From Parcubacteria group bacterium (GTDB taxonomy: Bacteria > Patescibacteriota > Minisyncoccia > Phycocordibacterales > Phycocordibacteraceae): 64,000 nucleotides of DNA. Below, piece by piece: positions 1 through 50,270 of this stretch. Made by a program: the position numbers and the translations under genes. The notes under the pieces are model-generated. The model did not search any database. It saw only the letters and a program-made list of their open reading frames with translations, and was not told the DNA's origin. Position 1 is the first letter of the stretch. Each line of letters starts with the position of its first letter. The stretch is from NCBI GenBank assembly GCA_028286605.1, contig JAQBRE010000007.1:44537-108536 (forward strand), given 5' to 3'.

Positions 1-3000
1 TCTGACTACACGGGATACGCATACATCGGCGGAACGACCACACGCATCACGAACATACAGAATTACTTCAGCACCACCGGCGGTGTAACGAAGCAGATGC
101 TTGATGAGTCGATCGATGCAGCGACGCTGAGCTTGAGCGGAAACAGCAGTGGAGGCGGCGGCACGACGGTAATCACGGGCGGAGGAGGATTCAGTGGCGG
201 CGCGCTAAGCGCAACGACCGGCGACTTTTCGAGCGACGTGAACGTAGACGGAAACTTCACACTTGCAGGAACGCTCGCGAGCGCGGGTGAGATCAGTGCG
301 CCATTCTTTACTGCCACATCGCTCGCTGCGACGTCGACACTTCCGAACATCATTTCGAATTCATTCAGTATCGGCGGTGACACGATTACGGATTTCACCG
401 GAACGGGCCTTGCAGTCGTGAATGGAAAACTTACTGCGACAGCAACGACATCGAATGCATTCCAGCAGGGGGGAAATATCTTCGGCACGACTGCGACCCT
501 CGGTACGCAGGATGCGAACCCACTCGCATTCATCACGAACAACATCGCACGCATGACGATTGATGCAGCAGGCAACGTTACGGTCGGCACGACGACATCT
601 GCATCACTGCTTACGATCGGCGGTGATACGCGCGGCGATACGTTCACGGCAGTCGGCACAGGCACCTCGACGCTTCCGCGTCTTGCAACGAGCGCGCTCG
701 CGCTCGGCAACGATTACGTGACGGGCTTCACCGGCAACGGTCTTGCGGTCGTCGGCGGCGTGCTCGGCCTCGCCGGCAGCAACAATTATTTCTCGACGAC
801 CTCGTCTGACTTCTGGCTGGGTACGAAGAGCACGAGCGATCTTGCGGAGGGTTCCAAGCTGTACTTCACGAATGCGCGCGCAGACGCGCGCATCAATGCG
901 ACCACTACCATCGGTACGCTCACTTCCGCGCCTAACCTCGGTACGCTTTCAACGACGCTCACGGGCATCGTGAAGGCAACGAGCGGTGTGCTCTCGAGTG
1001 CGGTTGCCGGAACAGATTACGAGAACCCGCTTGCATTCGTGTATCCATTGCAGCGAACGCTTAATAGCATCAGTCTTGCATTCGGTACTACCACCGCAAA
1101 CTCATGGAGCCAGCTGCAATCCTTCGGCAACATAACTGCAGCGAACGCAACCACTACGACGCTCGATGCTACTACGCTTGGCCTCGGCAATTCATACTTC
1201 ACCTCGCTCCTTGGTAGCGGCCTGCAGAATGTTGGTGGCGTACTCACGCTTGATCGCACGGGTGACTGGACCGGCACATTCGGCGGCCAGATCCCTAGCT
1301 ATTATCTAGATAGTGCGAATCAGACTGGCGTTCTTGCGCAGGCAAACGGCGGCACGGGCATCGGCAGCTTTAATCCAGGCGATATCCTGTATGCCGATAA
1401 CATGGGTACGCTGACGACGCTTCCTGTCGGTTCAACAGGCCAGGTGCTCAAGATACAGGCTGGATTGCCGCAATGGGGCGTTGACGCGACGGTCGGTGCC
1501 GGCGGTTCAGACGGAATCTTCGCGACATCTTCTGGCCTAGTCTATCCACTCGATACAAGCAATACCTTGCTTGTCGGCACGAACGCAACCTCGACGACAA
1601 ACAGTATCTTCGAAGTGCATGGTCAGAGCTACTTCTCATCGAAGCTCAGCATTGCGACTACCACCGCGCCGGTAGCGCTCTCTGTAGGTGGTTCAGGCTA
1701 CTTCACAGGCGGCCTCGGTGTTGGCATTCTTAATACGGTTGCTGGTACATTGCGCACCTCGGGCGCTGCGGACATCGGAGGTAACCTTATCGTGACGGGC
1801 GCAACCACGCTTGCTTCTGCAACCTCCTCTTCGTTCTTCACTTCGAACTTCGGTATCGGCAGCACGTATTTCAGCTCGCTTACCGGCGCAGGACTCCTTG
1901 ATACCGCAGGCGTGTTGACGCTCGACACGACAGGCAACTGGGCGGGTACATTCAATGGCCACGCCAGCTCGTTCTATCTTGATGCGACGAACTTGAATAA
2001 TTTTGGAACGCCGTTCTACACGTTCCTTCACGCAACAACTACCGACGCGCTCGCAGAAGGTGTTTCGCATCTGTACTTCACGGATGCGCGCGCAGATGCG
2101 CGCATAAACGCGACCTCGACCATCGGCACGCTCACTTCCGCGCCGAACCTCGGAACAGTATCGACGTCGTTGAACGGTTTGCTTAAGGCAACGAGCGGCG
2201 TGCTCTCTGTTGCTTCTGCGGGGACAGACTTCCAGGCGCCGATAACTGCAAGCTACCCGGTACTCTTCTCTGGAAATAATGTTTCGCTCGCATTCAGTAC
2301 GACCACTACGAATAGCTGGTCATCGCTTCAGACATTCGGCGCAGGCTTCGTTTCGCAGGCTTCCTCGACGGTTGCTGGTCCGCTTACGGTCTCGGGTGCC
2401 TTCACGATTCCAAGTGTCACGAATGCATTGCTTTCATCGAATGGAAGCGGAGTCGTAGGGGCAACGACGATCGGAAACGGCCTTGCGTTCAGTGCAAATA
2501 CGCTTTCCGTCTCAACATCGTCGCTTGCGTCCGGTTTCTTCAAGCAGAGCGGAAATGCATTCGGCACTACGGCAGTACTCGGTACTACCGATAGTAATGC
2601 GCTTACGTTCATAACCAGCAACACAGAGCGCGCACGATTCGATACCTCCGGTAATTTCGGCATCGGCACCAGCTCGCCCTCGCAGCTTCTTTCGGTGCAG
2701 GGAAGCGGGTTGTTCTCTGGAAACATTTCTGCCGCGAATGTAACGGCAACGGGCTCGCTCGCTGTTGTAGGAGTAACTAACACCGGCAATGAGCAGATCA
2801 CGGGCGGCCTCGGTGTCGGTGTCGTAAACACGACGGCCGGTACGATCGTTACAACCGGCGCGATCACTACCGGCTCTCAGTTCATCGGTCTTGCGAGCGA
2901 TGGCGTCTCCGCACCATCCTTCACCTGGGCTACCGACATCACGACCGGTATCTATCATGCTGCCGGCAACACCATCGGCTTCACTACTGCTGGTGTCGGA

Positions 3001-6000
3001 CGTGCGGTCATCGACGGCAACGGTAATCTCGGCATCGGCAGCACTTCGCCTGCAGCGAAGCTTTCCGTTGAAGGAAACGCGCTCATTCACGGCACGGCAA
3101 CCATCGACGGCTTGGGAAGCGGCCTCGTGAAATCTACGAATGGCTTGCTTGGGCTCGCGGTTGCGGGTACTGATTACGCGGCACCCTTCACCGCAACGTA
3201 TCCGATCCTGTTCTCCGCGAATAATCTTTCGCTCGCATTCGGCACGACCACCGCGAACTCATGGAGCCAGCTCCAGCAGTTCAATGGAGCTGCGTCGTCG
3301 ACGCAGCTCACTGTTACGGGCAACACTTATCTTGCGACGAACGCAGGCAGCGTTGGTATCGGAACTTCCTCGCCGTTCACGACACTTGGTGTTGCGGGCA
3401 CGGTCTTCGCAAGTGGAAACATAACGACGACAGGAACGCTCACTGCGACTGCGCTTGGTACGCATTTCGCCGTTGCTTCGAATAACGGCACGCTTACGGC
3501 GCCGAATGCGTTCGTCGACACGTTCCTTAATGATGTCTCTCAACAATCTGTCGTGACAGGATTTTTTGGAATAAACACAAGTACGGGAGGATTTTATCGA
3601 ACGCTTACCGGCACTGCCGGTCAGATAACGGTTGCGAATGGTAGCGGGGCGGGAGGAAATCCAACATTCTCGCTTCCAACGGCAATTACAGGGGTGAACA
3701 GCATCACCGCAGCAGCAAGCACGAACCTTACCCTCGCGTCGGGAGGTTCGAGTGCTACGAGCGTACTTCTTACTCCTAACGGGGGTGGGGTCGGTATCGG
3801 TACCACCTCGCCCTCGCAGCTTCTTTCGGTGCAGGGCAACGGCCTTTTCTCCGGAAACATCGCCGTTGCAAATATCACGGCGACAGGAACTCTTGCTACG
3901 GCTGGTATCACTGATTCTGGAAACGCGCAGATAACCGGAGGGCTCGGTGTCGGAACAGTAAATACTACGGCCGGTACGATCGTTACAACCGGCGCCATCA
4001 CCACCGGCTCTCAGTTCATCGGTCTCGCCTCAGACGCTGTAAATACGCCATCCTTTACCTGGGCTGGCGACCTTACGACCGGCATCTACCACGCTGCGGG
4101 CAACACCATCGGCTTCACCACTTCAGGCGTTGAGCGCGCACGCATCGATGGCAACGGATTCCTCGGCCTTGGTTCGACCACGCCATCCACACGCCTTTCC
4201 GTGGAGGGCAACGCGCTCATTCACGGCACGGTTACGGTTGATGGGCTCGGTTCAGGATTGGTTAAGTCTACGAATGGAACGCTTGGGCTCGCGGTCGCGG
4301 GTACTGACTATGAAAATCCGTTGACATTCAATGCACCGCTTTCACGTACTGTGAATGCAATATCGATATCACAGGCAACTGTATCTACGAACGGATATCT
4401 TGCCTCTGCAGATTTCAATCTCTTTAATAATAAAGTTTCTTCCACTTCACTTTCGGGTGCTTCGGTAATCTCCTATACCTCGGGTACAGGGGTCATAACC
4501 ACTACGGGCGGTACATTCGGAGGTGGGAATTATGTTTTCCCTGCGAACACTTCGGTTGCGGGTAATCTTATAGCAAATACCATTCAACGTGTATTAAATA
4601 CAAGCACACAGAATATTGGCACCACCTCAACGGTAGTATTAGGTGCAGGAGGCACAACGAATATCGTCGGAGGTAATGCTTCGTTTTCAGGTGCAGGCGG
4701 CAACGTAACGCTTACGGGAGGCACCGGAATTGCTGCAGGAGGAAATATTGTTATCAATGCGGGGACTGGCGCATCAACTGGCAGCATCCTTCTTGGAAGC
4801 ACGGCTGGGTTCGTGGGTATCGCCACCTCCACGCCTGGTTCGCTTCTTTCCATCGGAGGCGTCGCAAACTTCACCGCAGCGACCTCGACCTTATATGGTA
4901 GCGGGGGAATCAATCTGAGCGCGGGTTGTTTCGCGATCAACGGCGCATGCGTCGGCGGTAATACGCTTTCGTTCTCCTACCCGCTTACGCTTAGCGGCAC
5001 GAATGTGTCGCTCGCATTCGGCACTACCACGGCGAACACTTGGAGCGCACTCCAGACATTCAACGGCGGCGTGAGCGCATCAACGATCATTACTTCGGGC
5101 GCAATCACCACCGGCTCTCAGTTCATCGGCCTCGCTTCAGACGGCGCCTCTGCACCATCCTTCACCTGGGCCGGTGATCTCACGACGGGTATCTATCATG
5201 CCGCCGGTAATACTATCGGCTTCACGACGAGCGGCGTTGAGCGCGCACGCATCGATGGCAACGGATTCCTCGGCCTTGGTTCCACCACGCCATCCACACG
5301 CCTTTCCGTTGAAGGGAATGCGCTCATTCACGGCACGGCAACCATCGACGGCTTGGGAAGCGGCCTCGTGAAATCTACGAATGGCTTGCTTGGGCTCGCG
5401 GTTGCCGGTACCGATTACCTTGCTCCTGGTTCACTTTCTGCAACGTATCCAATTCTTTATTCGGGAAATAACTTCTCACTTGCATTCGGCACGACCACCG
5501 CGAACTCATGGAGCGCACTTCAGACATTCAACGGCGGTGCTTCAACGACGCAGCTCACTTCAACCGGCAGTACCTATCTTGCAACGACGGGTGGCAATGT
5601 AGGTGTCGGAACGGCAGCGCCAGCTTTCAAACTTGATGTTGCAGGACCGATAAATACGGATATATTCTCGGGTTACTACCAGGGTGGTAAGTTGTTGGCT
5701 TACGCGTCTTCTACGAACGACGATACGATCTTCGGTCTTGGTTCAGGCGGACAAAATGCCACCACAAGCGCAGCGATCAAATCGCTAACGGCATTCGGCT
5801 TCAATGCGTTGGCGGCTAATACCACAGGTAACGTTAACAACGCGTTCGGAGCAAATGCTCTCGCGGCAAACACGACAGGCGGAGGGAACAACGCGTTCGG
5901 AGCAAATACGCTCACGGTGAATATCTCAGGCAGCCTCAACGACGCGTTCGGAAACGGTGTCCTTATCCGTAACACAACAGGTTCTGGTAACAATGCTATT

Positions 6001-9000
6001 GGCAGCGGCGTTCTCTCCAACAACACGACTGGTTCTAATAATAATGCCATCGGCAGTCTTACTCTCGTAGGTAATACCACTGGTTCTAATAATAATGCCA
6101 TCGGCAATCTGGCCCTCAACGGCAACACCGGCAACAGCAACAGCGCTCTTGGCGATCAAGCAGGGTCTGTTACTACCGCCGGCAGCCAGAACCTCTTCCT
6201 CGGCGCACAGTCGAACACGATAGGAGCTGGATATATCAGCACCGGCTCCAACAACATCGGCATCGGCTACAACACGCTCTTCCCGAGCGCAACAGCAAGC
6301 AACCAGCTGAACATAGGTAACTTCATATACGGTACGATTGCCGCGACTTCGAGCGCAAGCACTTTCAGCGCGCCGGGTACCGGCCTCCTCGGTATCGGTT
6401 CCTCGACGCCAGGCTCGCTCCTTTCTATCGGCAACACGAACGGCATCAACTTCTCGACAGCGACTTCAACGTTCTCTTCAACGGGAGGTATCAACCTCAC
6501 GAACGGTTGTTACGCAGTAAACGGTGTCTGTGTCGGAACGAACGCAGGAACTGTAACTTCCGTTGACGCATCCGGCGGCACCACCGGCCTCACGTTCAGC
6601 GGCGGCCCTGTTACTACAAGCGGAACACTCGCGCTCGCAGGAACGCTCGTTGTTGCGAACGGTGGTACAGGAAGCACGACCCTTTCAGGTCTCTTGAAAG
6701 GAAACGGAACAGGATCACTCCTTACTGCGATTGCAGGGACCGATTACCTTGCTCCTGGTTCACTTTCTGCAACGTATCCAATTCTTTATTCGGGAAATAA
6801 CTTCTCACTTGCATTCGGTACCACGACTGCAAACTCATGGAGCCAGCTTCAGACGTTCACCTCAGGGTTTGTTTCTCAGGCATCGTCGACAATAACAGGT
6901 GTCCTTAACCTGGGTAACAATGTGAACTTTAACGAAGCAGGTACCACGACGCTTAAGACGCCTGATCAATCGAGCGGCAATATAGGATCGATCTTAATCT
7001 CAACAGGCGCGGTTAGTGGTGTTGCAAACCCGGGGAATATCACGATTATGCCAGGAAACTCGCCTGGCTCTGGGGGTAATGTCCTTATTAAGGGCGGTTC
7101 CGCAGGATTCGGGACGCCTGGAAACGTAACAATACAGCCAGGGATAGGTATTTCGGCTGGATACGCATTACTGGCATCTAACGGAGGCTTAGTAGGTATT
7201 GGTGCAACCACAACTCCTTCGCAGCTTCTTTCGGTGCAGGGCAATGGCCTCTTCTCCGGAAACATCAGTGCGGCGAACCTTACCGCAACAGGTACCGTTA
7301 CAACGGCAAACCTTACACTCGCAGCGCTTAACGGTCCGCTACAAGCGATCAACGGTGTCGTCTCTGCAACGACTTCTATTGGCGTTGTGTATGGCGGTAC
7401 GGGCTCAACGACGCTCACCGGCCTACTGAAGGGAAATGGCACAGGATCACTGCTCTCTGCTGTTGCCGGCACCGACTATCAGGCACCTCTTACGTTCGTG
7501 TACCCGCTTCTCAATAGTGCGAATACTATTAGCCTTGATTTTGGTACAACGACAGCGAATACATGGAGCGGCCTTCAGACCTTCGGTGCCGGTTTCGTTT
7601 CGCAAGCATCATCGACTGTTGCTGGCAACTTCACGGCTACTGGCTTTATCAGTACAAGTGGTACGACTGGCGGCTATCAGATTGACAATCAGCTCTTTGC
7701 GTACGGATCGACGACGAGCGGCGCGGTCGTCCTTGGGTTTGGCGCGGGAGGAGACGCCCTCACCACAGGTACTAGCCCGAACGTTGCTATAGGAAATAAT
7801 GCGCTGCATATCAATAGCGGAGGCACCTCGAACGTCGCCATCGGCTATCAGGCTATGCTTGTTAATCAGACAGGTTCAAGCAATACCGCTATCGGTTCGC
7901 AGGCACTGATCTTTAACCAGACAGGTTCAAGCAATACTGCTATCGGTCAGCAGGCGCTCAACTCTAATACGGTAGGCAGCAACAACGTCGGCATAGGAGC
8001 AAATGCTCTTCAAAACAATACGACAGCTACGAATACGGTCGCGATCGGCGTGTTCGCAGCTGGAGGTTCGGCAGCCTATACAAACCAAGGCGGAACGTAT
8101 GTTGGTTATTCGTCCGGATTCAGCGCGCATAGTTCCTCGGACTACAATTCGTTCTTCGGATATCAGTCTGGCGCGCAGGACACTACCGGAAACGACAACA
8201 TTTTCATTGGCGCACAGCCTAACTTCAGCGGCGCTGGGTATGTGACCACGGGCGCGAACGATATCGGCCTCGGTTTCAATACGCGCTTCCCAAGTGCAAC
8301 GGCAAGCAACCAGCTGAACATCGGTAACTTTATCTATGGAACACTGCCTGCCACCACGACGGCAAGCACCTTCAGCGTACCGACGGCAGGGCATCTCGGT
8401 ATCGGTTCCTCCTCTCCGTATGCAAAGCTTTCGGTCCATGCAAATAATGGGTCGACTGACACGACGCTCTTCTCGATCGGATCTTCCACCGCAAGCTTGA
8501 CGACGACACTCTTGAGCGTTAGCAACACCGGTGTCATCACGTCGAATGCTGCCGCAACCTCGACGTTCACGAACGGTATCGCTCTCACGGGTGGTTGCGT
8601 GAGCGTGAATGGCGCATGTATCGGTGTTGGTTCGGCCGGTACGGTAACCAGCGTTGACGCAGTTGGCGGCACCACCGGCCTCACGTTCAGTGGCGGCCCC
8701 ATTACTTCAAGCGGCGTTCTCACGCTTGCCGGCACCCTTGGTGTTGCGAACGGCGGCACAGGCGCAGTTACACTCACCGGCCTCGTGAAGGGAAACGGTA
8801 CCGGCGCATTCACCGCAGCAGTTGCCGGTACGGACTACCAGGCACCGCTCGCGTTCACGTATCCACTCGTGAATACGGCGAATACGATCTCGCTCGCATT
8901 CGGTACCACGACTGCGAACACGTGGAGCCAGTTGCAGCAGTTCAACGGCGGTGCTTCAACGACGCAGCTCACTGTTACGGGCAGCACCTATCTTGCAACG

Positions 9001-12000
9001 ACTGGAGGGAACGTCGGTGTCGGAACGGCAGCACCAGCATTCAAGCTCGATGTTGCAGGACCAATCAATACGAATATATTCTCGGGTTACTATCAGGGCG
9101 GCCAGCTGCTTGCCTATGCGTCTTCCACGAACGGTGCTACGATCTTCGGCCTTCAGGCAGGCGGACAGAACGCCACCACAAGCGCATCGGCCATCAGCTT
9201 AACGGCAATTGGATTCAAGGCATTGTCCGCAAACACCACCGGTTTCGCCAACACTGGAGTAGGTTTCTCCTCCCTCATTTCTAACACCACCGGTTTCGAC
9301 AACACCGCTTTCGGTATCAGCGCACTCGGCGGCACCACTATTGGCAGCAACAACGTGGCGGTTGGTGCCAGCGCACTCTTTGGAAACGTTTCAGGTACCA
9401 ACAACGTTGCTGTTGGTATTAATGCACTTGGTGCGGATATTTCAGCAACTACCACCGTAGCTGTGGGATCCGGCGCTGGGTGGGGATCGGGTAACTACTC
9501 GAATCAGGGCGGTACGTACCTTGGATATCAAGCAGGAACATTCCTTGCAAACGGCTCAGATTACAACACGCTGCTCGGATATCAGTCTGGTTCGCAGGTT
9601 ACTTCCGGATACGGAAACATCTTGGTGGGACCATCGGTTTCTAGTAACAACCTCACGACAGGTTCAGGCAACATAGGTATCGGATATAACCTTTCTTTCC
9701 CTGCAGCTTCTACGAATAATTATCTCAACATCGGCAGCCTGATCTTCGGCACGCTACCAGCGACGACCACCTCACTGACGGCACCAGTTTCAGGTCTGCT
9801 CGGCATCGGTACCACTTCGCCGTACGCGAAACTCAGCGTCCAAAGCAATAACGGCGACACCGCAACAACGCTCTTCGCGATCGGTTCATCCACCGCATCG
9901 CTTAACAGCACACTGTTCAGTGTCAGCAACACCGGTGTGATCACGTCGAATGCTGCAGCAACGTCAACGTTCACGAACGGTATCGCTCTCACGGGCGGCT
10001 GCGTAAGCGTGAACGGTACCTGTCTTGGTACTGGCAGTGGGGGCGTTACTTCCGTAAACGCAGTCGGCGGCACCACCGGCCTCACGTTCAGTGGCGGGCC
10101 GATTACAAGCTCGGGCACACTCACTCTTGCCGGCACGCTCGGCGTTGCGAATGGCGGCACGGGTTCAACCACGCTCACCGGCCTACTGAAGGGAAATGGC
10201 ACAGGATCACTCCTCACTGCCGTTGCCGGTACGGATTATCTCGCGCCAGGCTCGCTCTCTGCGACGTATCCGATTCTCTACAGTGCTAATAATTTCTCAT
10301 TGGCCTTCGGTACGACGACCGCTAATACATGGTCTTCGCTTCAAACGTTCACTTCAGGACTTATCTCGCAGGCATCCTCAACATTCAGCGGTTCATTGAA
10401 TGTTACGGGCTCTTCGTACTTCGGCGCGAATGTAGGTATCGGTACCACGACTGCAGCACAGCTGCTTACGCTTTCAGCTGCTGATACAAGTACATCGCTG
10501 ATTACGGCAGCACTTGCTTCTGAATCGATCATCAATAGCGATACTACGAACAACAATACTGCGGACCTCGTTTTCAAGACTGCTGATACCGCTGGCGCTA
10601 CCGTTGTTGGTACGAAACTTGCAACAGTCTTCACGTCGCACACGCCGAGCGGCGTCTCAGCTGATCTTGCATTCATAACCCGAAACGCAGGCACGCTCTC
10701 TGAGAAGCTGCGTCTCACGGCTGCCGGTAATCTCGGTGTCGGCACTACCACGCCTTCACAGGCACTCTCTGTTCAGGGTAATGGTCTCTTCTCTGGAAAC
10801 ATAAGTTCAGCGAACGTTACCGCTACCGGTACTATCACGACACCTAATCTCACGATCGCAGCGCTTAATGGTCCGCTACAGGCAAACAACGGTGTTGTAT
10901 CCGCAACGACTTCAATTGGAGTGCAGTACGGCGGTACGGGAGCAATCACCCTCACCGGTCTTATAAAGGGAAATGGTACGAGTGCGTTCACCGCAGCAGT
11001 AGCAGGAACGGACTACCAGGCCCCGCTCGCGTTCACGTATCCATTGGTTAATACCACCAACACCATTTCGCTTGCGTTCGGCACGACGACGGCGAACTCA
11101 TGGAACAGTCTCCAGCAATTCAATGGCGGACTGACTGCTTCAACGATCACGACGACAGGCAGTGTCGGTATCGGCACAAGTACTCCTGGTTCACTCCTTT
11201 CTATAGGTACTACGAATGGCATTAACTTCAGTACGGCAACATCAACCTTCAGTTCGACGGGCGGCATCAACCTTACGAATGGATGCTACGCAGTGAACGG
11301 CGTGTGTCTTTCAACGGGCGGCGGTACATTCACCAATACGCTTGCGAATGGCGGTACTGCAACAACTACCTTCTACGCAGGCGGTTTGGTATTTAGCGAC
11401 GGCACGAAGCTTACGCAGGCTTCGGGCTCTGGAGCAAGCATTCTTAGCTGGAACAACACGAACGGATTCCTTGGCATCGGCTCAAGCAGCCCTTCGTATG
11501 CGCTTTCCGTTCAGGGTACCAGCGGCATACGTGTGAAGACCACAACGAACACTGCCGCTGCGCTGGGTATCGAAAACTCACAAGGCACGACAACCCTCCA
11601 GGCCGACACTCTTGATTCAAGCGATTCGATCTTCTCTGTCGCAACCTCTACGGGTAACACGTACTTCTACGTGGGAGCTGGCGGAAACGTAGGTGTCGGC
11701 ACGACCACGCCGCTTTCCGCGCTTGCTATCGGCGGCGCAGGAGGTCTTTCCGTGGGAGCAGACTACAACATCGCAGCGCCAACGAACGGTGCGATCATCG
11801 AAGGCGGGTTAGGTGTCGGCACCACTTCTGTCATGAATAACGACGCGCTTGATGTAAGCGGCGCAGTGTACATCAACGGCACAGGCACCAACCCACTTGC
11901 TCTTTCGGTAGGCGCTACCGCCGCCGCAACCCCGAGCTTCAGCGTAGATCAAAGCGCTGGTATCGGTACGGGTCTCTCCGTAGTAACGAATCTCGTGGGA

Positions 12001-14175
12001 TCAGGAGTTACGCTGCAGGGTCTTTCTAGTGCTGCAAACGAGAACTTTAATATACTCTCGAAGGGAGGCGGTAACATCAAGCTGTTCTCTAACGGAGGTT
12101 CGATTCAGGTTTCAACCGCATTCGGAAGCCAATATACGTTTGCTGCGACTGCTCTTACTATCACCGGCTTCACCGCTGCCGCGAGCGGCAACCACTTCTC
12201 CGTCGTAGGGGGTATCGACACCGCCATCACCGCTGCTACAGAATCGTCTGATGTGTATTTCAACCTTGGTCAGACGCGCACCAACTTATCCAATACTGCT
12301 GTTTCAACTTTCCGAGATTTCCGTATAACGGGCTCGACGCACGCATTCGCTACTGCTGGCGGCGTGATAAACAATGCCGCAGGATTCTCGGTTGACTTGC
12401 CAGATAGCGCCGGCACTAACGCAACGATAAGCACCTCATCAGCTATCTATGTTCCTGGAGGTGCAGTCACGGGTACGGTATCAACAAGTACTGCCGCAAA
12501 CCTTCTTGCCTCGACAGGAGCAACGAATAACTTCGCGCTTACGACGAACGGTCGAGTAGTCCACAGCAGCCTCACTGCCGGTGCTGGCGCAGGATCCGTC
12601 TGTATGAGCGCTACCGGTGAATTGCTCTTCGACAGCGGGGCGAACTGTATCGTGTCCACACCGCTCGCGAAGCACAATATTCATGGCATCTCAGATGCGC
12701 AGGCAGATGAAGTGCTAAGTCTCGACGCTATCCAGTACGACTACAACGACGGAAGCGGTACTCGTTACGGTTTCAATGCATTGCAGGCCGCGAGCATCGA
12801 TCCAACACTCGTGGTTTATGCAGCGTCTGACATACAGGTAGTTGGTGCTGATGGAAATCCTGTAACCGTAGCGAAGGGCCAGCCATATACCTTCGACTAT
12901 GGTCGCTACACGGGCCTTCTTACTGCTGAAGTACAGAAGCAGCAGAAGCAGATAAGCCTGCTTGCAAGCACGACGCTTGCAGCGGCGGCATCCGCAGGCG
13001 CTCCTGCGCCCGTTGCAGCAACCACTCTTTCTGCGAATTCAATCTACACGCAGAGCCTCACTATTAAGGGCAATGCATTCGCGACATCGTTCGTCGCACC
13101 GGCAACGCCGATTACGTTCACGATCGGTTCTACAACGGGCACGCTGCCAAATGAAGTGCTTGCATCAGATGGCAGTGGCGTAGACCTCTATAAGGCAGCG
13201 ACGTATGCAATCACCGGCGTGCAAGCGCTCCAGGCGCAGACGGGCGTGCTCGCGAGCCGTCTTGATGCGGTCGAACTGCGCGTGACGATGCTCGAAGCTG
13301 AAGCGTCGAGTACGCAAGCAGTAGGCAGCGGCACGCTCTCGCTCGCCGGCTTCGAGGATCTGCTCGGCCAGATCGGCGTTATCGTGAAGGACGGCATCGC
13401 GCACTTCACATCGCTCGCCTTCACGAACCTGATATCAGCACCAGCCGCAGACGGTACGTCGGCAGTAGCAACGAGCACGATAGCGATGGGTGATACGCAG
13501 GCAGTAGTGGTAAACAATCTCGCGCATCCGACTTCGGAAATCTTCGTTACCATCACCTCTCCGCTTAATGGAAGCTGGTACATCAGCCAGAAGGGCGAGG
13601 GAAGCTTCACGATCAATCTTTCGAGTCCGCAGACCGCAGACGTGACCTTCGACTACTTCATCGTGCAGACGGAAAAGGGGGCAACGCAGGTCGCGAGCGT
13701 AGCGAGCGCCCCGGTGCAGACGCCTGCGCAGTATCCTGATCAGACACCAGTTGATCCGAGTGCATCAACGACACCTGCAGCATCTACGAATGCACCGACC
13801 ATAACGCTTACCGGCAGTGCCGCAATTGATATCGCGCAGGGTGCTCCATGGACTGACCCGGGTGCAATCGCGCAGGACGCAGCAGGGAAAGATCTTACCG
13901 CGCAGATCGCGGTAACAGGCAGCGTTGATACGAATACTGCAGGCCTGTACACGCTTAACTACTCGGTTGTTGATTCTGCCGGAGCGAGCGCAGGCGTATC
14001 ACGTATCGTGCATGTTTCGGCACCGGTAGTATCAAGCCCACCTGCTGAAACCGCGCCGCCCGCAGACACCTCTGCTCCGGTGCAGACACCTGCATCTGAT
14101 CCAGCTACTCCCGCAGCGTCTGCGCCAAGCCCGGTAACAGCTGACGCGGGCGCTACTCCGTCCACAGGCGGCTAA
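1..14175 (+). CDS. Giant repetitive surface/fibre protein (5' end outside window; >4,700 aa) with C-terminal peptidase-S74-like intramolecular chaperone domain, Ig-like (DUF5011-type) domain and Pro/Ala/Ser-rich tail
   Basis: The reading frame of the ORF at 97..14175 is open back to nt 1. The upstream translation SDYTGYAYIGGTTTRITNIQNYFSTTGGVTKQ has the same G/T/S/A-rich composition, so the gene starts upstream of the window. About 11 recurrences of the motif AGTDY.AP..F.YP.....ISLAFGTTTAN(S/T)WS.LQ(T/Q)F. Five C..NG.C loops. Near the C-terminus, STPLAKHNIHGISDAQADEVLSLDAIQYDYNDGSGTRYGFNALQ...GQPYTFDYGRYTGLL fits the S-x4-K / Y.Y.DGS signature of tail-fibre intramolecular chaperones. This is followed by ITLTGSAAIDIAQGAPWTDPGAIAQDAAGKDLTAQIAVTGSVDTNTAGLYTLNYSVVDSAG (DUF5011-like Ig fold). 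Confidence 0.8.
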   Translation, partial: SDYTGYAYIGGTTTRITNIQNYFSTTGGVTKQMLDESIDAATLSLSGNSSGGGGTTVITGGGGFSGGALSATTGDFSSDVNVDGNFTLAGTLASAGEISAPFFTATSLAATSTLPNIISNSFSIGGDTITDFTGTGLAVVNGKLTATATTSNAFQQGGNIFGTTATLGTQDANPLAFITNNIARMTIDAAGNVTVGTTTSASLLTIGGDTRGDTFTAVGTGTSTLPRLATSALALGNDYVTGFTGNGLAVVGGVLGLAGSNNYFSTTSSDFWLGTKSTSDLAEGSKLYFTNARADARINATTTIGTLTSAPNLGTLSTTLTGIVKATSGVLSSAVAGTDYENPLAFVYPLQRTLNSISLAFGTTTANSWSQLQSFGNITAANATTTTLDATTLGLGNSYFTSLLGSGLQNVGGVLTLDRTGDWTGTFGGQIPSYYLDSANQTGVLAQANGGTGIGSFNPGDILYADNMGTLTTLPVGSTGQVLKIQAGLPQWGVDATVGAGGSDGIFATSSGLVYPLDTSNTLLVGTNATSTTNSIFEVHGQSYFSSKLSIATTTAPVALSVGGSGYFTGGLGVGILNTVAGTLRTSGAADIGGNLIVTGATTLASATSSSFFTSNFGIGSTYFSSLTGAGLLDTAGVLTLDTTGNWAGTFNGHASSFYLDATNLNNFGTPFYTFLHATTTDALAEGVSHLYFTDARADARINATSTIGTLTSAPNLGTVSTSLNGLLKATSGVLSVASAGTDFQAPITASYPVLFSGNNVSLAFSTTTTNSWSSLQTFGAGFVSQASSTVAGPLTVSGAFTIPSVTNALLSSNGSGVVGATTIGNGLAFSANTLSVSTSSLASGFFKQSGNAFGTTAVLGTTDSNALTFITSNTERARFDTSGNFGIGTSSPSQLLSVQGSGLFSGNISAANVTATGSLAVVGVTNTGNEQITGGLGVGVVNTTAGTIVTTGAITTGSQFIGLASDGVSAPSFTWATDITTGIYHAAGNTIGFTTAGVGRAVIDGNGNLGIGSTSPAAKLSVEGNALIHGTATIDGLGSGLVKSTNGLLGLAVAGTDYAAPFTATYPILFSANNLSLAFGTTTANSWSQLQQFNGAASSTQLTVTGNTYLATNAGSVGIGTSSPFTTLGVAGTVFASGNITTTGTLTATALGTHFAVASNNGTLTAPNAFVDTFLNDVSQQSVVTGFFGINTSTGGFYRTLTGTAGQITVANGSGAGGNPTFSLPTAITGVNSITAAASTNLTLASGGSSATSVLLTPNGGGVGIGTTSPSQLLSVQGNGLFSGNIAVANITATGTLATAGITDSGNAQITGGLGVGTVNTTAGTIVTTGAITTGSQFIGLASDAVNTPSFTWAGDLTTGIYHAAGNTIGFTTSGVERARIDGNGFLGLGSTTPSTRLSVEGNALIHGTVTVDGLGSGLVKSTNGTLGLAVAGTDYENPLTFNAPLSRTVNAISISQATVSTNGYLASADFNLFNNKVSSTSLSGASVISYTSGTGVITTTGGTFGGGNYVFPANTSVAGNLIANTIQRVLNTSTQNIGTTSTVVLGAGGTTNIVGGNASFSGAGGNVTLTGGTGIAAGGNIVINAGTGASTGSILLGSTAGFVGIATSTPGSLLSIGGVANFTAATSTLYGSGGINLSAGCFAINGACVGGNTLSFSYPLTLSGTNVSLAFGTTTANTWSALQTFNGGVSASTIITSGAITTGSQFIGLASDGASAPSFTWAGDLTTGIYHAAGNTIGFTTSGVERARIDGNGFLGLGSTTPSTRLSVEGNALIHGTATIDGLGSGLVKSTNGLLGLAVAGTDYLAPGSLSATYPILYSGNNFSLAFGTTTANSWSALQTFNGGASTTQLTSTGSTYLATTGGNVGVGTAAPAFKLDVAGPINTDIFSGYYQGGKLLAYASSTNDDTIFGLGSGGQNATTSAAIKSLTAFGFNALAANTTGNVNNAFGANALAANTTGGGNNAFGANTLTVNISGSLNDAFGNGVLIRNTTGSGNNAIGSGVLSNNTTGSNNNAIGSLTLVGNTTGSNNNAIGNLALNGNTGNSNSALGDQAGSVTTAGSQNLFLGAQSNTIGAGYISTGSNNIGIGYNTLFPSATASNQLNIGNFIYGTIAATSSASTFSAPGTGLLGIGSSTPGSLLSIGNTNGINFSTATSTFSSTGGINLTNGCYAVNGVCVGTNAGTVTSVDASGGTTGLTFSGGPVTTSGTLALAGTLVVANGGTGSTTLSGLLKGNGTGSLLTAIAGTDYLAPGSLSATYPILYSGNNFSLAFGTTTANSWSQLQTFTSGFVSQASSTITGVLNLGNNVNFNEAGTTTLKTPDQSSGNIGSILISTGAVSGVANPGNITIMPGNSPGSGGNVLIKGGSAGFGTPGNVTIQPGIGISAGYALLASNGGLVGIGATTTPSQLLSVQGNGLFSGNISAANLTATGTVTTANLTLAALNGPLQAINGVVSATTSIGVVYGGTGSTTLTGLLKGNGTGSLLSAVAGTDYQAPLTFVYPLLNSANTISLDFGTTTANTWSGLQTFGAGFVSQASSTVAGNFTATGFISTSGTTGGYQIDNQLFAYGSTTSGAVVLGFGAGGDALTTGTSPNVAIGNNALHINSGGTSNVAIGYQAMLVNQTGSSNTAIGSQALIFNQTGSSNTAIGQQALNSNTVGSNNVGIGANALQNNTTATNTVAIGVFAAGGSAAYTNQGGTYVGYSSGFSAHSSSDYNSFFGYQSGAQDTTGNDNIFIGAQPNFSGAGYVTTGANDIGLGFNTRFPSATASNQLNIGNFIYGTLPATTTASTFSVPTAGHLGIGSSSPYAKLSVHANNGSTDTTLFSIGSSTASLTTTLLSVSNTGVITSNAAATSTFTNGIALTGGCVSVNGACIGVGSAGTVTSVDAVGGTTGLTFSGGPITSSGVLTLAGTLGVANGGTGAVTLTGLVKGNGTGAFTAAVAGTDYQAPLAFTYPLVNTANTISLAFGTTTANTWSQLQQFNGGASTTQLTVTGSTYLATTGGNVGVGTAAPAFKLDVAGPINTNIFSGYYQGGQLLAYASSTNGATIFGLQAGGQNATTSASAISLTAIGFKALSANTTGFANTGVGFSSLISNTTGFDNTAFGISALGGTTIGSNNVAVGASALFGNVSGTNNVAVGINALGADISATTTVAVGSGAGWGSGNYSNQGGTYLGYQAGTFLANGSDYNTLLGYQSGSQVTSGYGNILVGPSVSSNNLTTGSGNIGIGYNLSFPAASTNNYLNIGSLIFGTLPATTTSLTAPVSGLLGIGTTSPYAKLSVQSNNGDTATTLFAIGSSTASLNSTLFSVSNTGVITSNAAATSTFTNGIALTGGCVSVNGTCLGTGSGGVTSVNAVGGTTGLTFSGGPITSSGTLTLAGTLGVANGGTGSTTLTGLLKGNGTGSLLTAVAGTDYLAPGSLSATYPILYSANNFSLAFGTTTANTWSSLQTFTSGLISQASSTFSGSLNVTGSSYFGANVGIGTTTAAQLLTLSAADTSTSLITAALASESIINSDTTNNNTADLVFKTADTAGATVVGTKLATVFTSHTPSGVSADLAFITRNAGTLSEKLRLTAAGNLGVGTTTPSQALSVQGNGLFSGNISSANVTATGTITTPNLTIAALNGPLQANNGVVSATTSIGVQYGGTGAITLTGLIKGNGTSAFTAAVAGTDYQAPLAFTYPLVNTTNTISLAFGTTTANSWNSLQQFNGGLTASTITTTGSVGIGTSTPGSLLSIGTTNGINFSTATSTFSSTGGINLTNGCYAVNGVCLSTGGGTFTNTLANGGTATTTFYAGGLVFSDGTKLTQASGSGASILSWNNTNGFLGIGSSSPSYALSVQGTSGIRVKTTTNTAAALGIENSQGTTTLQADTLDSSDSIFSVATSTGNTYFYVGAGGNVGVGTTTPLSALAIGGAGGLSVGADYNIAAPTNGAIIEGGLGVGTTSVMNNDALDVSGAVYINGTGTNPLALSVGATAAATPSFSVDQSAGIGTGLSVVTNLVGSGVTLQGLSSAANENFNILSKGGGNIKLFSNGGSIQVSTAFGSQYTFAATALTITGFTAAASGNHFSVVGGIDTAITAATESSDVYFNLGQTRTNLSNTAVSTFRDFRITGSTHAFATAGGVINNAAGFSVDLPDSAGTNATISTSSAIYVPGGAVTGTVSTSTAANLLASTGATNNFALTTNGRVVHSSLTAGAGAGSVCMSATGELLFDSGANCIVSTPLAKHNIHGISDAQADEVLSLDAIQYDYNDGSGTRYGFNALQAASIDPTLVVYAASDIQVVGADGNPVTVAKGQPYTFDYGRYTGLLTAEVQKQQKQISLLASTTLAAAASAGAPAPVAATTLSANSIYTQSLTIKGNAFATSFVAPATPITFTIGSTTGTLPNEVLASDGSGVDLYKAATYAITGVQALQAQTGVLASRLDAVELRVTMLEAEASSTQAVGSGTLSLAGFEDLLGQIGVIVKDGIAHFTSLAFTNLISAPAADGTSAVATSTIAMGDTQAVVVNNLAHPTSEIFVTITSPLNGSWYISQKGEGSFTINLSSPQTADVTFDYFIVQTEKGATQVASVASAPVQTPAQYPDQTPVDPSASTTPAASTNAPTITLTGSAAIDIAQGAPWTDPGAIAQDAAGKDLTAQIAVTGSVDTNTAGLYTLNYSVVDSAGASAGVSRIVHVSAPVVSSPPAETAPPADTSAPVQTPASDPATPAASAPSPVTADAGATPSTGG
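5411..6843 (+). repeat. Intragenic near-identical nucleotide repeats in the giant gene. Example: 5411..5514 and 6740..6843 are about 94% identical. Other families recur at about 2840-3110, 3970-4240 and 5090-5360, and at 8560-8790 and 9950-10180
   Basis: Direct comparison of sequence lines. The coding text ccgattaccttgctcctggttcactttctgcaacgtatccaattctttattcgggaaataacttctcacttgcattcgg occurs twice. Confidence 0.8.
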
Positions 14176-14195
14176 TACTTATAAGGTATATACTT

Positions 14196-26933: not shown

Positions 26934-26945
26934 CGATAGTAAGGA

Positions 26946-26984
26946 GGACGCCCGTCAGGCATTGCCTGACGGGCGTCCTTTTGG
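26946..26984 (+). terminator. Rho-independent terminator
   Basis: ggacgcccgtcagg-cattg-cctgacgggcgtcc followed by ttttgg. Confidence 0.7.
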
Positions 26985-26999
26985 TATAGTCATTCCACT

Positions 27000-27254
27000 A
27001 TGAAGAAAGACATCCACCCAGCCGATTACCGCACTGTGATGTTCGAGGACATGTCCTCGGGCGCGGTGTTCCTTATCGGTTCGACCATCCACACGAAAGA
27101 AACCGGCACACATGAGGGAAAGGAGTACCCGAAGGTTGTCGTTGAAATCTCCAGCAAGTCTCACCCGTTCTACACCGGTGAAGACCGTACGCTCGACAAG
27201 ACAGGACGTGTTGAGAAGTTCAAGCAGCGTGTCGCTGCAGCGAAGAATAAGTAA
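27000..27254 (+). CDS. rpmE: 50S ribosomal protein L31 (non-zinc type)
   Basis: [17 protein letters not shown] ... [24 protein letters not shown] matches the L31 family. Confidence 0.9.
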
Positions 27255-27256
27255 GG

Positions 27257-27342
27257 CAAAAGGCTGGGAATAGCTTCTCTCGCGTCCTCGCCTCGGGCCC
27301 TGCACGGCTCCGGGCGCTGCGAGAACTATTCCCAGCCTTTTG
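27257..27342 (+). promoter_or_regulatory. Long imperfect hairpin element A, 3 nt after the rpmE stop (outer stem 17 bp perfect; conserved core ..CTGCACGG.TCCG.GCGCTGCG.GAA)
   Basis: The 5' arm caaaaggctgggaatag (27257-27273) pairs perfectly with ctattcccagccttttg (27326-27342). Its core is shared with element B at 29095-29179. Confidence 0.55.
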
Positions 27343-27367
27343 TGTTGATATACTTCGAGCAACAACC

Positions 27368-28324
27368 ATGATTGAGTACTCATCTGATTTTAAGGCGAAT
27401 CACAAAACCGCGTACTTGGCGGAGGAGTTTGAGCGTCTGGAGGCAGAACGAAGTAGCGGAAGAGAAGCGGCAGGGGAGGACGCGGTGCTGCGTGAGATGG
27501 CTGCAGAAGATGAGGACCGTATTGATGCGCGGCAGAAGGAGATTCTCGGAACCATCGAGGATATTTTGAATAAGGATAAGGAGGAAGAAAGCTTGCCGAA
27601 GGCCGTGGTGTTGGAATTCCGTGCTGGCGCTGGCGGCGATGAAGCGACGTTGTTCGCTCAAGAGCTGAAGGAGATGTACCAGAAGTACGCAGAAGCGAAG
27701 GGTTGGCCAGTACGCGTTATAGATGAGCTCACGATCGAAGTGAGCGGAACGAAAGCGTATGAGGCGCTTCGGTACGAAACTGGCGTGCATCGCGTGCAGC
27801 GCGTTCCACAAACGGAAAAATCCGGACGTATACACACTTCAACTGCATCGGTCGCTTCGCTCCCTATTCGCACGAAGCCGAAGTTCGAGATCAACCCTAC
27901 GGATATCGAGATGGAATTCTCGCGCTCCGGCGGCGCAGGCGGCCAGAACGTGAACAAGGTGGAGTCTGCGGTGCGTCTCATTCACAAGCCGACGGGTATA
28001 GATGTTCGCTCAACGAGCGAACGCTCGCAGCTGAACAACCGCCTTAAGGCTATGGAAATCCTTTCCGCGAAGCTCGAAGCTATCTATGAGGAAGAAGAGG
28101 CAAAGAAGCACGCGGATATGCGCTCAGGCCAGATCGGTACGGGCGACCGCTCCGAGAAGATCCGCACCTATAACTTTCTGCAGGATCGCATCACGGATCA
28201 CCGCTTGAAAGAGTCCTGGCATAACCTGCCTAAAATCATGCTCGGAAACCTCGATCCTATCGTTGAGGCCCTTCAGGCTGCCGCAGCGAACGGGGGAGTG
28301 GGCGCTGCTGAGGATGCTGAGTAA
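27368..28324 (+). CDS. prfA: Peptide chain release factor 1
   Basis: GGQ motif ([25 protein letters not shown]) and the RF1-type PQT tripeptide ([13 protein letters not shown]). Confidence 0.9.
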
Positions 28325-28387
28325 GTGTTTCGCGACGGTCTGTAAGGCCGTATTGCGCCCCTATATGGCGTGTGGTATCTTCTGTCT

Positions 28388-29089
28388 ATGACTACCGATA
28401 CATCGGCTGGGCCTGGCGTTGACGCTCTCTTTGCAGCGGGCGCTCACTTTGCCCAGGTGAAAAGCCGTCGCCACCCAACTATGAAGCCGTTCGTCCTTGG
28501 CTCTAAGAGCAAGGTTGAGATCTTCGATCTCGTTAAGACCGATGCACAGCTTGCAGCGGCTAAGACCGCTATCGCGGCGCTCGCACGCGACGGCAAGACC
28601 ATCCTCTTCGTCGGCGGCAAGCGCGAAGTATCCGATCAGGTTCGTGAAGCAGCGAAGCGCATCGGACAGCCGTATGTTGCTGGTCGCTGGCTCGGCGGCA
28701 CTATCTCTAACTTCGTAGAGATCAAGAAGCGTATCGACCGCCTTGCAGACCTCACCGAGAAGCGCTCTACTGGCGAACTCAGCAAGCTCTACACGAAGCT
28801 CGAGCGCGTCTACATCGACCGCGAAATCGACCGTCTCACTGAGCGCCTCGACGGTATCCGCAACCTCGCGAAGCGTCCTGACGCTATGGTTATCGTAGAC
28901 ACGAAGGCTGAGGCACACGCTTCTAAGGAAGCGAAGGATGCAGGCATTCCTGTTATCGGCATCATGAGCTCGGATTGCGATATCCACGATGCTGCATTCC
29001 CTATAGTCACTAATGACGCTTCACGCGCAACGGTGACTCTCGTTCTTCAGGAACTCACGAACGCGTTCGAAGTCGGTCAGAAGGGATAG
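28388..29089 (+). CDS. rpsB: 30S ribosomal protein S2
   Basis: AGAHFAQVKSRRHPTMKPFVLGSKSKVEIFDL ... LFVGGKRE ... RWLGGTISNF matches the S2 family. Confidence 0.95.
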   Translation: MTTDTSAGPGVDALFAAGAHFAQVKSRRHPTMKPFVLGSKSKVEIFDLVKTDAQLAAAKTAIAALARDGKTILFVGGKREVSDQVREAAKRIGQPYVAGRWLGGTISNFVEIKKRIDRLADLTEKRSTGELSKLYTKLERVYIDREIDRLTERLDGIRNLAKRPDAMVIVDTKAEAHASKEAKDAGIPVIGIMSSDCDIHDAAFPIVTNDASRATVTLVLQELTNAFEVGQKG

Positions 29090-29094
29090 ATAGC

Positions 29095-29179
29095 AGGAAG
29101 CTCTGAGTAGCTTCCCTCGCGTGCTCACCTCGAGTACCTGCACGGTTCCGCGCGCTGCGGGAACTACTCAGAGCTTCCT
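29095..29179 (+). promoter_or_regulatory. Long imperfect hairpin element B, 6 nt after the rpsB stop, homologous to element A with compensatory stem changes
   Basis: The 5' arm aggaagctctgagtag (29095-29110) pairs perfectly with ctactcagagcttcct (29164-29179). The inner core cctcgcgtgctcacctcgagtacctgcacggttccgcgcgctgcgggaa is about 85% identical to A. Confidence 0.55.
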
Positions 29180-29218
29180 TACGTTCGATATCTTTTGTAC
29201 AATAAACGAAACACAAAT

Positions 29219-29800
29219 ATGGAAATCACTACCGAAATGCTCAAAACTCTCCGTGACAAAACGGGAGTATCAGTAATGCAGTGCAAGAAAGCTTTGGAAG
29301 AGGCAGAGGGAGATATTGATAAGGCTGAGGTTATCCTGCGCAAGCGCTCGAGCTCTGCCGCAGAGAAGAAGGGAGATCGCGAGCTCGGTGCAGGTGCTAT
29401 CGGTTCCTACGTACACGGCGGCGAGATCGGCGCTATGGTGCTTCTTTCCTGCGAGACGGACTTCGTTGCACGTAACCCAGAATTCCCTGCGCTCGCTCGC
29501 GAAATCGCGATGCAGATCGCCGCTTCTGATCCGAAGTACCTGAACGAGGCAGACATCGCTCCTGAGGCTGTAACAGCCGCTAAGGCGGTCTTTACTGCAG
29601 AGGTGCAGGACAAGCCCGCAGACATGCAGGAGAAGATCCTCGAGGGCAAGATGGCTTCGTATTTCAAGGACATGGTCCTCATGAATCAGACATACATCAA
29701 GGATGATTCTAAGAGCGTGAAGGACCTCATCACGGAGGCTTCACAGAAGTTCGGCGAGCGCGTCGAGATCACGAAGTACGCGCGCTTCAGCGCGCGCTAG
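29219..29800 (+). CDS. tsf: Elongation factor Ts (short form)
   Basis: EITTEMLKTLRDKTGVSVMQCKKALEEAEGDIDKAEVILRK matches the UBA-like N-terminal domain of EF-Ts. Confidence 0.9.
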   Translation: MEITTEMLKTLRDKTGVSVMQCKKALEEAEGDIDKAEVILRKRSSSAAEKKGDRELGAGAIGSYVHGGEIGAMVLLSCETDFVARNPEFPALAREIAMQIAASDPKYLNEADIAPEAVTAAKAVFTAEVQDKPADMQEKILEGKMASYFKDMVLMNQTYIKDDSKSVKDLITEASQKFGERVEITKYARFSAR

Positions 29801-50193: not shown

Positions 50194-50215
50194 TTAGAGA
50201 AGAGCACAGCAAAAA

Positions 50216-50270
50216 AATAAAAGAGGGTAAGACTTGGCCGAGCGGCCCGGAGCGCCCTCTTTTATTTTTG
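50216..50270 (+). terminator. Terminator hairpin after rpmF
   Basis: aaaagagggtaagacttggccgagcggcccggagcgccctctttt followed by atttttg. Confidence 0.6.

Follow-up and report, generated by a model that had tools for sequence, protein, structure and literature searches.

Known families of intergenic palindromic repeats include REP/BIME, ERIC, Correia and other MITE-like elements. Among structured RNAs at the ribosomal protein gene rpsB, an S2-binding leader was reportedly described by Aseev et al. in 2008, and in E. coli an attenuator similar to that of Staphylococcus aureus is found between rpsB and tsf. In S. aureus itself, part of the transcription passes the rpsB-tsf terminator, and tsf has a promoter of its own as well (PMC4608709). 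Furthermore, perfect stems can be created and maintained by template switching during replication (PMC8794818). The window analyzed here, a 64-kb stretch of DNA from a Parcubacteria group bacterium, contains a comparable arrangement at two neighboring sites. According to Pfam and NCBIfam the gene order is rpmE (ribosomal protein L31, type B; 27000..27254), element A, prfA (release factor 1, 318 aa; 27368..28324), rpsB (ribosomal protein S2; 28370..29089), element B and tsf (EF-Ts; 29219..29800), all on the plus strand; the true start codon of rpsB may lie a few codons downstream of the called start, which is probably why an exact-protein look-up of S2 had no match. As in intrinsic terminators generally and the S. 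aureus rpsB-tsf spacer in particular, a stable hairpin directly follows the stop codon of rpsB (and of rpmE), and the predicted promoter of the next gene comes after the hairpin. On balance, A and B are probably two paralogous hairpins of the intrinsic-terminator or 3'-end kind, longer than usual and with an extended apical module in common.

Element B (29095..29179; covariance-model score 111 bits) is an irregular hairpin of 85 nt with the rpsB stop codon on one side and the tsf -10 hexamer on the other, and its sequence is exactly as quoted in the initial annotation, which had described it as the second copy of a hairpin motif. Its paralogue, element A (27258..27341; 105.8 bits), is flanked in like manner by the rpmE stop codon and the prfA -10 hexamer, on the same strand, and extends over 27256-27343 if two further terminal pairs are counted. 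The initial annotation had placed the start of both copies within 6 nt of a ribosomal-protein stop codon and ahead of a translation-factor gene, and both statements are accurate: B begins 5 nt after the rpsB TAG and precedes tsf, and A begins 1-3 nt after the rpmE TAA and precedes prfA. The outer stem of B, AGGAAGCTCTGAGTAG / CTACTCAGAGCTTCCT, is indeed perfect, with the P1 5' arm (29095..29110), which is variable between copies, forming 16 Watson-Crick pairs with the 3' arm (29164..29179); the latter is followed by TACGTTCG, only a weak T-tract. The interior (29112..29163) comprises P2 (29112-29116 with 29159-29163), P3 (29118-29124 with 29150-29155 and 29157), which includes an invariant U·G, P4 (29127-29129 with 29144-29146) and a 14-nt apical loop (29130-29143) with an invariant CCTGCA.

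Both hairpins are about 85 nt long with a GC-rich interior enclosed by a 16-bp perfect outer stem, and both are far more stable than dinucleotide-shuffled sequences, none of 200 of which folded as well (B: -49.8 kcal/mol, z = -7.2; A: -55.5 kcal/mol, z = -7.8). The two align nearly without gaps. Nine of the 33 predicted pairs are changed on both sides between A and B and remain Watson-Crick (six in the 16-bp outer stem and three in the interior), and only one pair differs on a single side, as expected from the earlier description of differing stem positions with preserved pairing. The outer stem columns are identical at 20 of 32 positions and the 42-nt core at 35 of 42 (83%), in agreement with the loop core having been called nearly identical. 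Within the 64-kb window the shared core was found at the A and B sites only, with an expected count of 0. The 5' arm of B can also fold on itself (GGAAGCU-CUGAGU-AGCUUCC, within 29096-29115), as can the 5' arms of other copies, e.g. GGGAG-CAU-CUCCC in the related lineage L018; in two other relatives (L019 and L022), of the 5'-arm hairpin and the long stem just the small 5'-arm hairpin remains. It is possible that this small hairpin competes kinetically with the long stem.

The position of both elements relative to promoters is informative. Hexamers matching TA[TC]A[ACG]T, in many cases with a TG ahead of them, precede 13 of the window's start codons by 1-15 nt (among them those at 14189, 16806, 21066, 26985, 27349, 29198, 32466, 35485 and 52698), where they read TATACT, TATAGT or TACAAT. 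These 13 of the 63 hexamers in the window fall in start-codon zones that cover 0.67% of the sequence, an enrichment of about 30-fold. Judging from the nucleotide sequence, most mRNAs of this genome look leaderless or very short-leadered, with terminators abutting the next promoter. An extended -10-like element, TGATATACT (27346..27354), is located 13 nt before the ATG of prfA, and another, TTGTACAAT (29195..29203), 15 nt before that of tsf. The tsf -10 motif TTTTGTAYAAT is kept in five relatives, with or without the hairpin element, and reads TTTTAGTACAAT in L022. The gap from hairpin end to extended -10 element is 4-15 nt, and to the -10 hexamer itself 6 nt for A (27349) and 18 nt for B (29198). 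Since the inferred -10 hexamers lie between element and ATG, both elements are situated upstream of the inferred promoter of the next gene and outside the primary leaders of prfA and tsf. The previous suggestion of a regulator of prfA and tsf is therefore not supported: the -10 hexamers are downstream of the element, a control terminator covaries alike, and the element is dispensable and often decayed in relatives. In having a structured, covarying RNA beside rpsB and rpmE, the locus resembles ribosomal-protein leaders (the S2-binding rpsB leader and the L31 leaders of Rfam) and riboswitch-type cis-regulators; unlike these, A and B are located 3' of the ribosomal-protein genes and upstream of the next promoters, have no Rfam match, and are not conserved with the genes.

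The same positions are those of a terminator, i.e. a start 1-5 nt past the stop codon with the next -10 hexamers directly beyond, at 27349 and 29198. Terminators in this clade are long perfect palindromes that stand a few bases past the stop codon and abut the -10 of the next short-leader gene, and A and B would be the 3'-end hairpins of the transcription units of rpmE and rpsB (intrinsic terminators, leaky attenuators or 3'-end protectors), either terminating transcription or stabilizing the RNA. A T-rich 3' flank is a further likeness, good in A and weak in B, as is a stem free to vary as long as it stays paired. Measured against a U-tract of about 7-9 nt directly after the stem, the 3' end of A (CCUUUUGUGUU) has four U inside the stem base and a U-rich sequence thereafter, its 3' arm ending in CCTTTT followed by GTGTT; the tract UUUUGUGUU would be usable. 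By the same measure the 3' end of B (CUUCCUUACGUU) has a weak U-tract, as do other copies at the rpsB site. A terminator consensus scan, which allows loops of 3-8 nt only, called neither element. By analogy with rpsB-tsf in S. aureus, B would probably be leaky and permit read-through into tsf.

Several features argue against the terminator reading. Canonical intrinsic terminators have a compact stem of 5-14 bp and a loop of 3-8 nt, whereas A and B are far larger, with about 85 nt, 31 pairs, three internal irregularities (internal loops) and a conserved apical loop of 14-15 nt, and a 42-nt interior is common to the two hairpins; termination at A and B is, moreover, a prediction from sequence. 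A terminator consensus scan, which allows loops of 3-8 nt only, called neither element. The copies at the rpsB site, B included, are without a good U-tract (TTCCTTACGTT). Finally, the core is conserved beyond the needs of stability, and the mismatch between core subtype and locus, described below, hints at exchange or mobility.

Six distinct full copies of this kind (termed type I) were aligned, namely A and B of the window, both copies of L018, and the copies of L049 and L014. A MAFFT-only alignment misaligned the outer arms, and an alignment guided by a covariance model built from A and B was used instead. Standard pairs occupied 93.5% of cells, compared with 36-51% when partners were slid by 1-3 columns, double changes were present in 18 of 31 pairs, and the covariation score was 0.497, values reached by none of 500 column shuffles, all for six sequences in an alignment fitted to a model that was itself derived from A and B. 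Changes extend into the interior, where pair 29:57 is C-G, G-C and A-U across copies, pair 33:52 is G-C and A-U, and the P4 helix of L018 is switched whole from GCC/GGC to GGA/UCC. The covarying pairs 29:57, 33:52, 34:51 and 35:50 favor a single extended hairpin. A three-way-junction model of the core, obtained from the minimum-free-energy fold of one copy, was rejected, as its two apical helices barely covary and one of its pairs is broken in five of six copies. Intact copies have 30 Watson-Crick pairs and one invariant U·G, and their outer stem is without any G·U.

An ordinary terminator, that of the gene preceding rpmE (26945..26979, plus strand), served as the control. It is a 17-bp perfect palindrome located 280 nt upstream of element A and followed by TTTTGG and the rpmE -10 TATAGT, so that its layout of stop codon, hairpin, TTTTGG, TATAGT and ATG is that of A and B. 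Across seven lineages (the window, L011, L014, L018, L019, L046 and L048) this terminator was 98.4% paired, with 12 of 18 pairs double-changed and a covariation score of 0.582. Its stem is a perfect palindrome of 17-20 bp that differs in every lineage, and its apex, CCAGGCATTGCCTGG, is kept in six of the seven, with L019 keeping just the central GGCATTGCC. A terminator after a tRNA gene behaved in the same way between the window and L011, and other terminators in the window, also unusually long, are perfect palindromes of 13-27 bp bordered by A- and T-tracts. At 50213-50269 a third nested hairpin of terminator-like form was observed, with a 15-bp A-tract/T-tract stem (AAAAATAAAAGAGGG / CCCTCTTTTATTTTT) enclosing a 27-nt GC-rich insert with a GGCC-GAGC-GGCC mini-hairpin, unrelated in sequence to A and B.

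Because a plain terminator covaries to the same degree or more strongly, covariation is generic for the terminators of this clade. The initial annotation had taken compensatory change as the signature of a selected structure; matched changes do keep the hairpin, and that part stands, but the pattern is not diagnostic. A conserved apex on a freely varying, perfectly paired stem is the normal appearance of a terminator in this clade and not the mark of a special regulator. If the terminator reading is true, the finding is ordinary biology, two terminators, and it carries a caution: perfect compensatory covariation with a conserved apex is normal for terminators here, so that calling a regulatory RNA takes more than covariation.

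How the stems remain complementary is a separate matter. Fourfold-degenerate sites of tsf are approximately 45-64% identical between these lineages, while the outer-stem columns are 41-78% identical; the outer stem drifts at about the neutral rate yet stays complementary. Complementarity could be kept by selection for a stable hairpin, or by template switching during replication, with one arm copied from the other. The near-absence of G·U fits arm-to-arm copying at least as well as stepwise compensatory selection, and the fact that such intermediates are nearly lacking speaks for template switching. Described template-switch hairpins (PMC8794818) likewise have long perfect stems with matched double substitutions and hardly any G·U intermediate, although selection for termination explains the same pattern in A and B. 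This clade, with its long perfect palindromes abutting short-leader promoters, represents a clean natural data set in which the question of selection versus template switching could be addressed.

The same observations bear on whether the element acts as DNA, either as a cruciform or hairpin palindrome recognized by a DNA-binding or recombination protein, or as a functionless by-product of palindrome-homogenizing replication errors. This reading is highly improbable. The stems are almost purely Watson-Crick, with no G·U in the variable outer stem despite many substitutions, the minus strand folds equally well or slightly better (-52.4 kcal/mol for B and -58.7 kcal/mol for A), and template switching is known to make stems of this sort (PMC8794818). 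Against this, the U·G kept in every one of the six copies would read as a mismatched C·A on the opposite strand, and the exact placement at gene 3' ends with A-/T-tracts fits transcription. No recombinase gene is associated with the elements. Covariance-model scores are also far higher on the plus strand (111 and 106 bits) than on the minus strand (39 and 37 bits), weak evidence given that the model was built on the plus strand.

The EF-Ts of the window is 100% identical to a protein of a metagenome-assembled genome of a Parcubacteria group bacterium, and relatives at 76-92% identity were numerous. The syntenic region was taken from ten further lineages. Intact type I hairpins are present at both rpmE-prfA and rpsB-tsf in the window and in L018, and at rpsB-tsf in L049, in which the other site is outside the contig. 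L014 (with L043) has a different long hairpin, termed type II, at rpmE-prfA and a type I core with a degraded outer stem at rpsB-tsf. Type II hairpins at the first site are likewise accompanied by type I remnants at the second in L019 and L022 (5' remnants) and in L046 (a 3' remnant). L050 has a plain terminator at rpmE-prfA and a core-less 24-bp perfect hairpin (2292-2343) at rpsB-tsf, and L011, L048 and L051 have a plain short terminator at the former and a short spacer with a weak hairpin at most at the latter. The rpmE-prfA site is therefore type I in two lineages, type II in four, and a plain terminator in L011, L048, L050 and L051, and the states found at one and the same site across relatives are intact, decayed, truncated, core-less, replaced by another long hairpin, and absent. 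In the L050 hairpin the type I inner stem CTCTCG/CGAGAG is kept and a 7-nt loop, TTCCCTG, replaces the 30-odd-nt core; the core was either cleanly deleted from within or never present there (an empty site). Type I hairpins occur only in a small number of closely related Parcubacteria lineages, and their relatives can do without them.

The type II hairpins (L014 7468-7569, L019 8080-8187, L022 291-392 and L046 7853-7954), which look unrelated to type I, consist of a 20-bp outer stem enclosing two inner hairpins with conserved loops UGCU and CGUC. Among the four sequences the inner hairpins are 100% paired with four double-changed pairs, and a compensatory series is evident from AATTTTC/GAAAATT through ATTTTCC/GGAAAAT to ATTTCCC/GGGAAAT. 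No Rfam match was obtained for type II. By eye, the 3' half of type II is approximately 68% identical to the 3' half of the type I core.

The presence/absence polymorphism at orthologous sites is shared with REP/BIME, ERIC, Correia and MITE-like families, as are an imperfect long palindrome in transcribed intergenic DNA and a closer resemblance between copies of the same genome than expected. Unlike those families, there are only two copies, 1.8 kb apart and at gene 3' ends, and no target-site duplications. The architecture is also the reverse of that of terminal-inverted-repeat elements, with variable arms and a conserved center in A and B, and the family is limited to few close Parcubacteria lineages. 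According to the initial annotation, copies in random contexts would have pointed to a selfish palindromic repeat; none were found beyond the two sites in the 64-kb window and approximately 170 kb of relatives' DNA. Profile and covariance-model searches of the window and eight related lineages (up to ~20 kb each) yielded no further type I or type II copies, giving two copies per 64 kb where REP-, MITE- or ERIC-like families have many dispersed ones. At A and B no conserved terminal inverted repeats and no flanking direct repeats or target-site duplications were seen, the terminal arms being the most variable part.

Searches of larger collections gave similar results. In GTDB genomes the pattern CTGCACGGNTCCGNGCGCTGCG had ten single matches, in high-GC genomes and with the pattern alone matched, indicating chance, and in metagenome contigs CCTGCANNNNTCCGNGCGCTGCGNGA had 14 matches, again confined to the pattern region, in a collection that evidently does not contain these Parcubacteria contigs. 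Six unrelated soil contigs (L024, L026, L028, L031, L032 and L034) carry an identical 30-nt pattern match with identical scores, presumably a conserved coding segment of an abundant high-GC soil organism unrelated to the element. Three pattern scans of viral contigs returned chance matches or none, and blastn against plasmids and phages returned one chance match in a traG gene and nothing else. At the Rfam gathering threshold tRNA alone passed in the window, and in E-value mode the best matches were generic hairpin models far below threshold; identity as a known ribozyme or riboswitch was rejected, with no support from Rfam.

The 42-nt core is a different matter from the stems. It is 71-95% identical between lineages and is conserved well above neutral sites, the CCTGCA loop included, which hairpin stability alone does not require. 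Outer stems follow the locus, with window A and the rpmE-site copy of L018 matching at 25 of 32 positions, while the closest core matches cross loci: window B with the rpmE-site copy of L018 (39/42), and window A with the rpsB-site copies of L049 and L014 (39/41). This hints at short-tract exchange between copies or strains, on the strength of 2-4 independent characters. Under the terminator reading, the common GC-rich apical module (P2-P4 and the 14-15-nt loop) could have been copied or converted from one site to the other, or inserted into the loop of a terminator.

A related explanation sees in the conserved core a small palindromic module, selfish or exchangeable (MITE/REP-like, or spread by short-tract gene conversion), that resides in the loops of host terminators. 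It would move between the two sites and between strains while the outer stems belong to the host, and it overlaps with the terminator reading, since the hairpin could still terminate transcription. As an account of the core this is unlikely, although a number of observations are consistent with it, namely the stems that follow the locus where the cores do not, the same long stem with a 7-nt loop at the core position in L050, an rpmE-prfA site that is type I, type II or a plain terminator by lineage, truncated or decayed copies in L019, L022 and L046, and the unrelated GC-rich nested insert in the third terminator at 50213-50269. The incongruence of core and locus amounts to 2-4 independent characters only, however, and just the two sites are ever occupied in the window and the ~170 kb of relatives' DNA, without target-site duplications or a transposase and with no copy in GTDB genomes, metagenome contigs, viral contigs, plasmids or phages. 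Furthermore, to judge from the remnants in L019, a distant relative, the core was ancestral at the rpsB site and lost later, so that L050 resembles a deletion and not an empty site.

Conservation of the core also bears on regulation in cis. With a protein or ligand bound at the core, the element would govern how much of the transcription of rpmE continues into prfA, and of rpsB into tsf, so that factor supply is coupled to ribosome synthesis. In a possible variant, the 5' arm would be covered by a ribosome that terminates 1-5 nt upstream, and the hairpin would be kept from forming. Such regulation seems quite improbable here. It is suggested by one core following two ribosomal-protein genes and preceding two translation-factor genes, by conservation far above neutral sites that includes the unpaired CCTGCA, and by the invariant U·G in P3, which fits a plus-strand RNA; the competing 5'-arm hairpin of B, read from the sequence and the nos_TCE alignment, offers an attenuator-like alternative pairing, and read-through at the rpsB site may be tunable, given its weak U-tracts. 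Nevertheless, the downstream genes have their own -10 hexamers past the element, a plain terminator covaries at least as well, no Rfam family matches and no candidate partner protein was identified. Co-conservation with prfA and tsf is also lacking in close relatives with the same gene order, the element being absent from L011, L048 and L051 and reduced to remnants in L019, L022 and L046.

With A and B read as terminator or 3'-end hairpins, the sole part that could prove to be new biology is the 42-nt core, with its strong conservation and a distribution that ignores the locus. The core (P3, P4 and the CCUGCA loop) could in principle be a functional module, either a candidate site for a protein (a ribosomal protein, RNase or termination factor) that tunes read-through to translational capacity in genome-reduced bacteria of the candidate phyla radiation, or a miniature element that passes among terminator loops and among strains separately from the stems around it; either role is very doubtful.

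Some further features of the window were observed. The L31 encoded by rpmE scores as the type B (zinc-independent) form. The RF1 encoded by prfA is short at 318 aa, with approximately 35 N-terminal model residues missing and a score below the NCBIfam equivalog cut-off. Positions 97-14175 are occupied by a single ORF of 4692 aa that is rich in diverged internal repeats, with direct-repeat families spaced at approximately 1.1-1.4 kb, and its product is probably a giant surface or adhesin-like protein.
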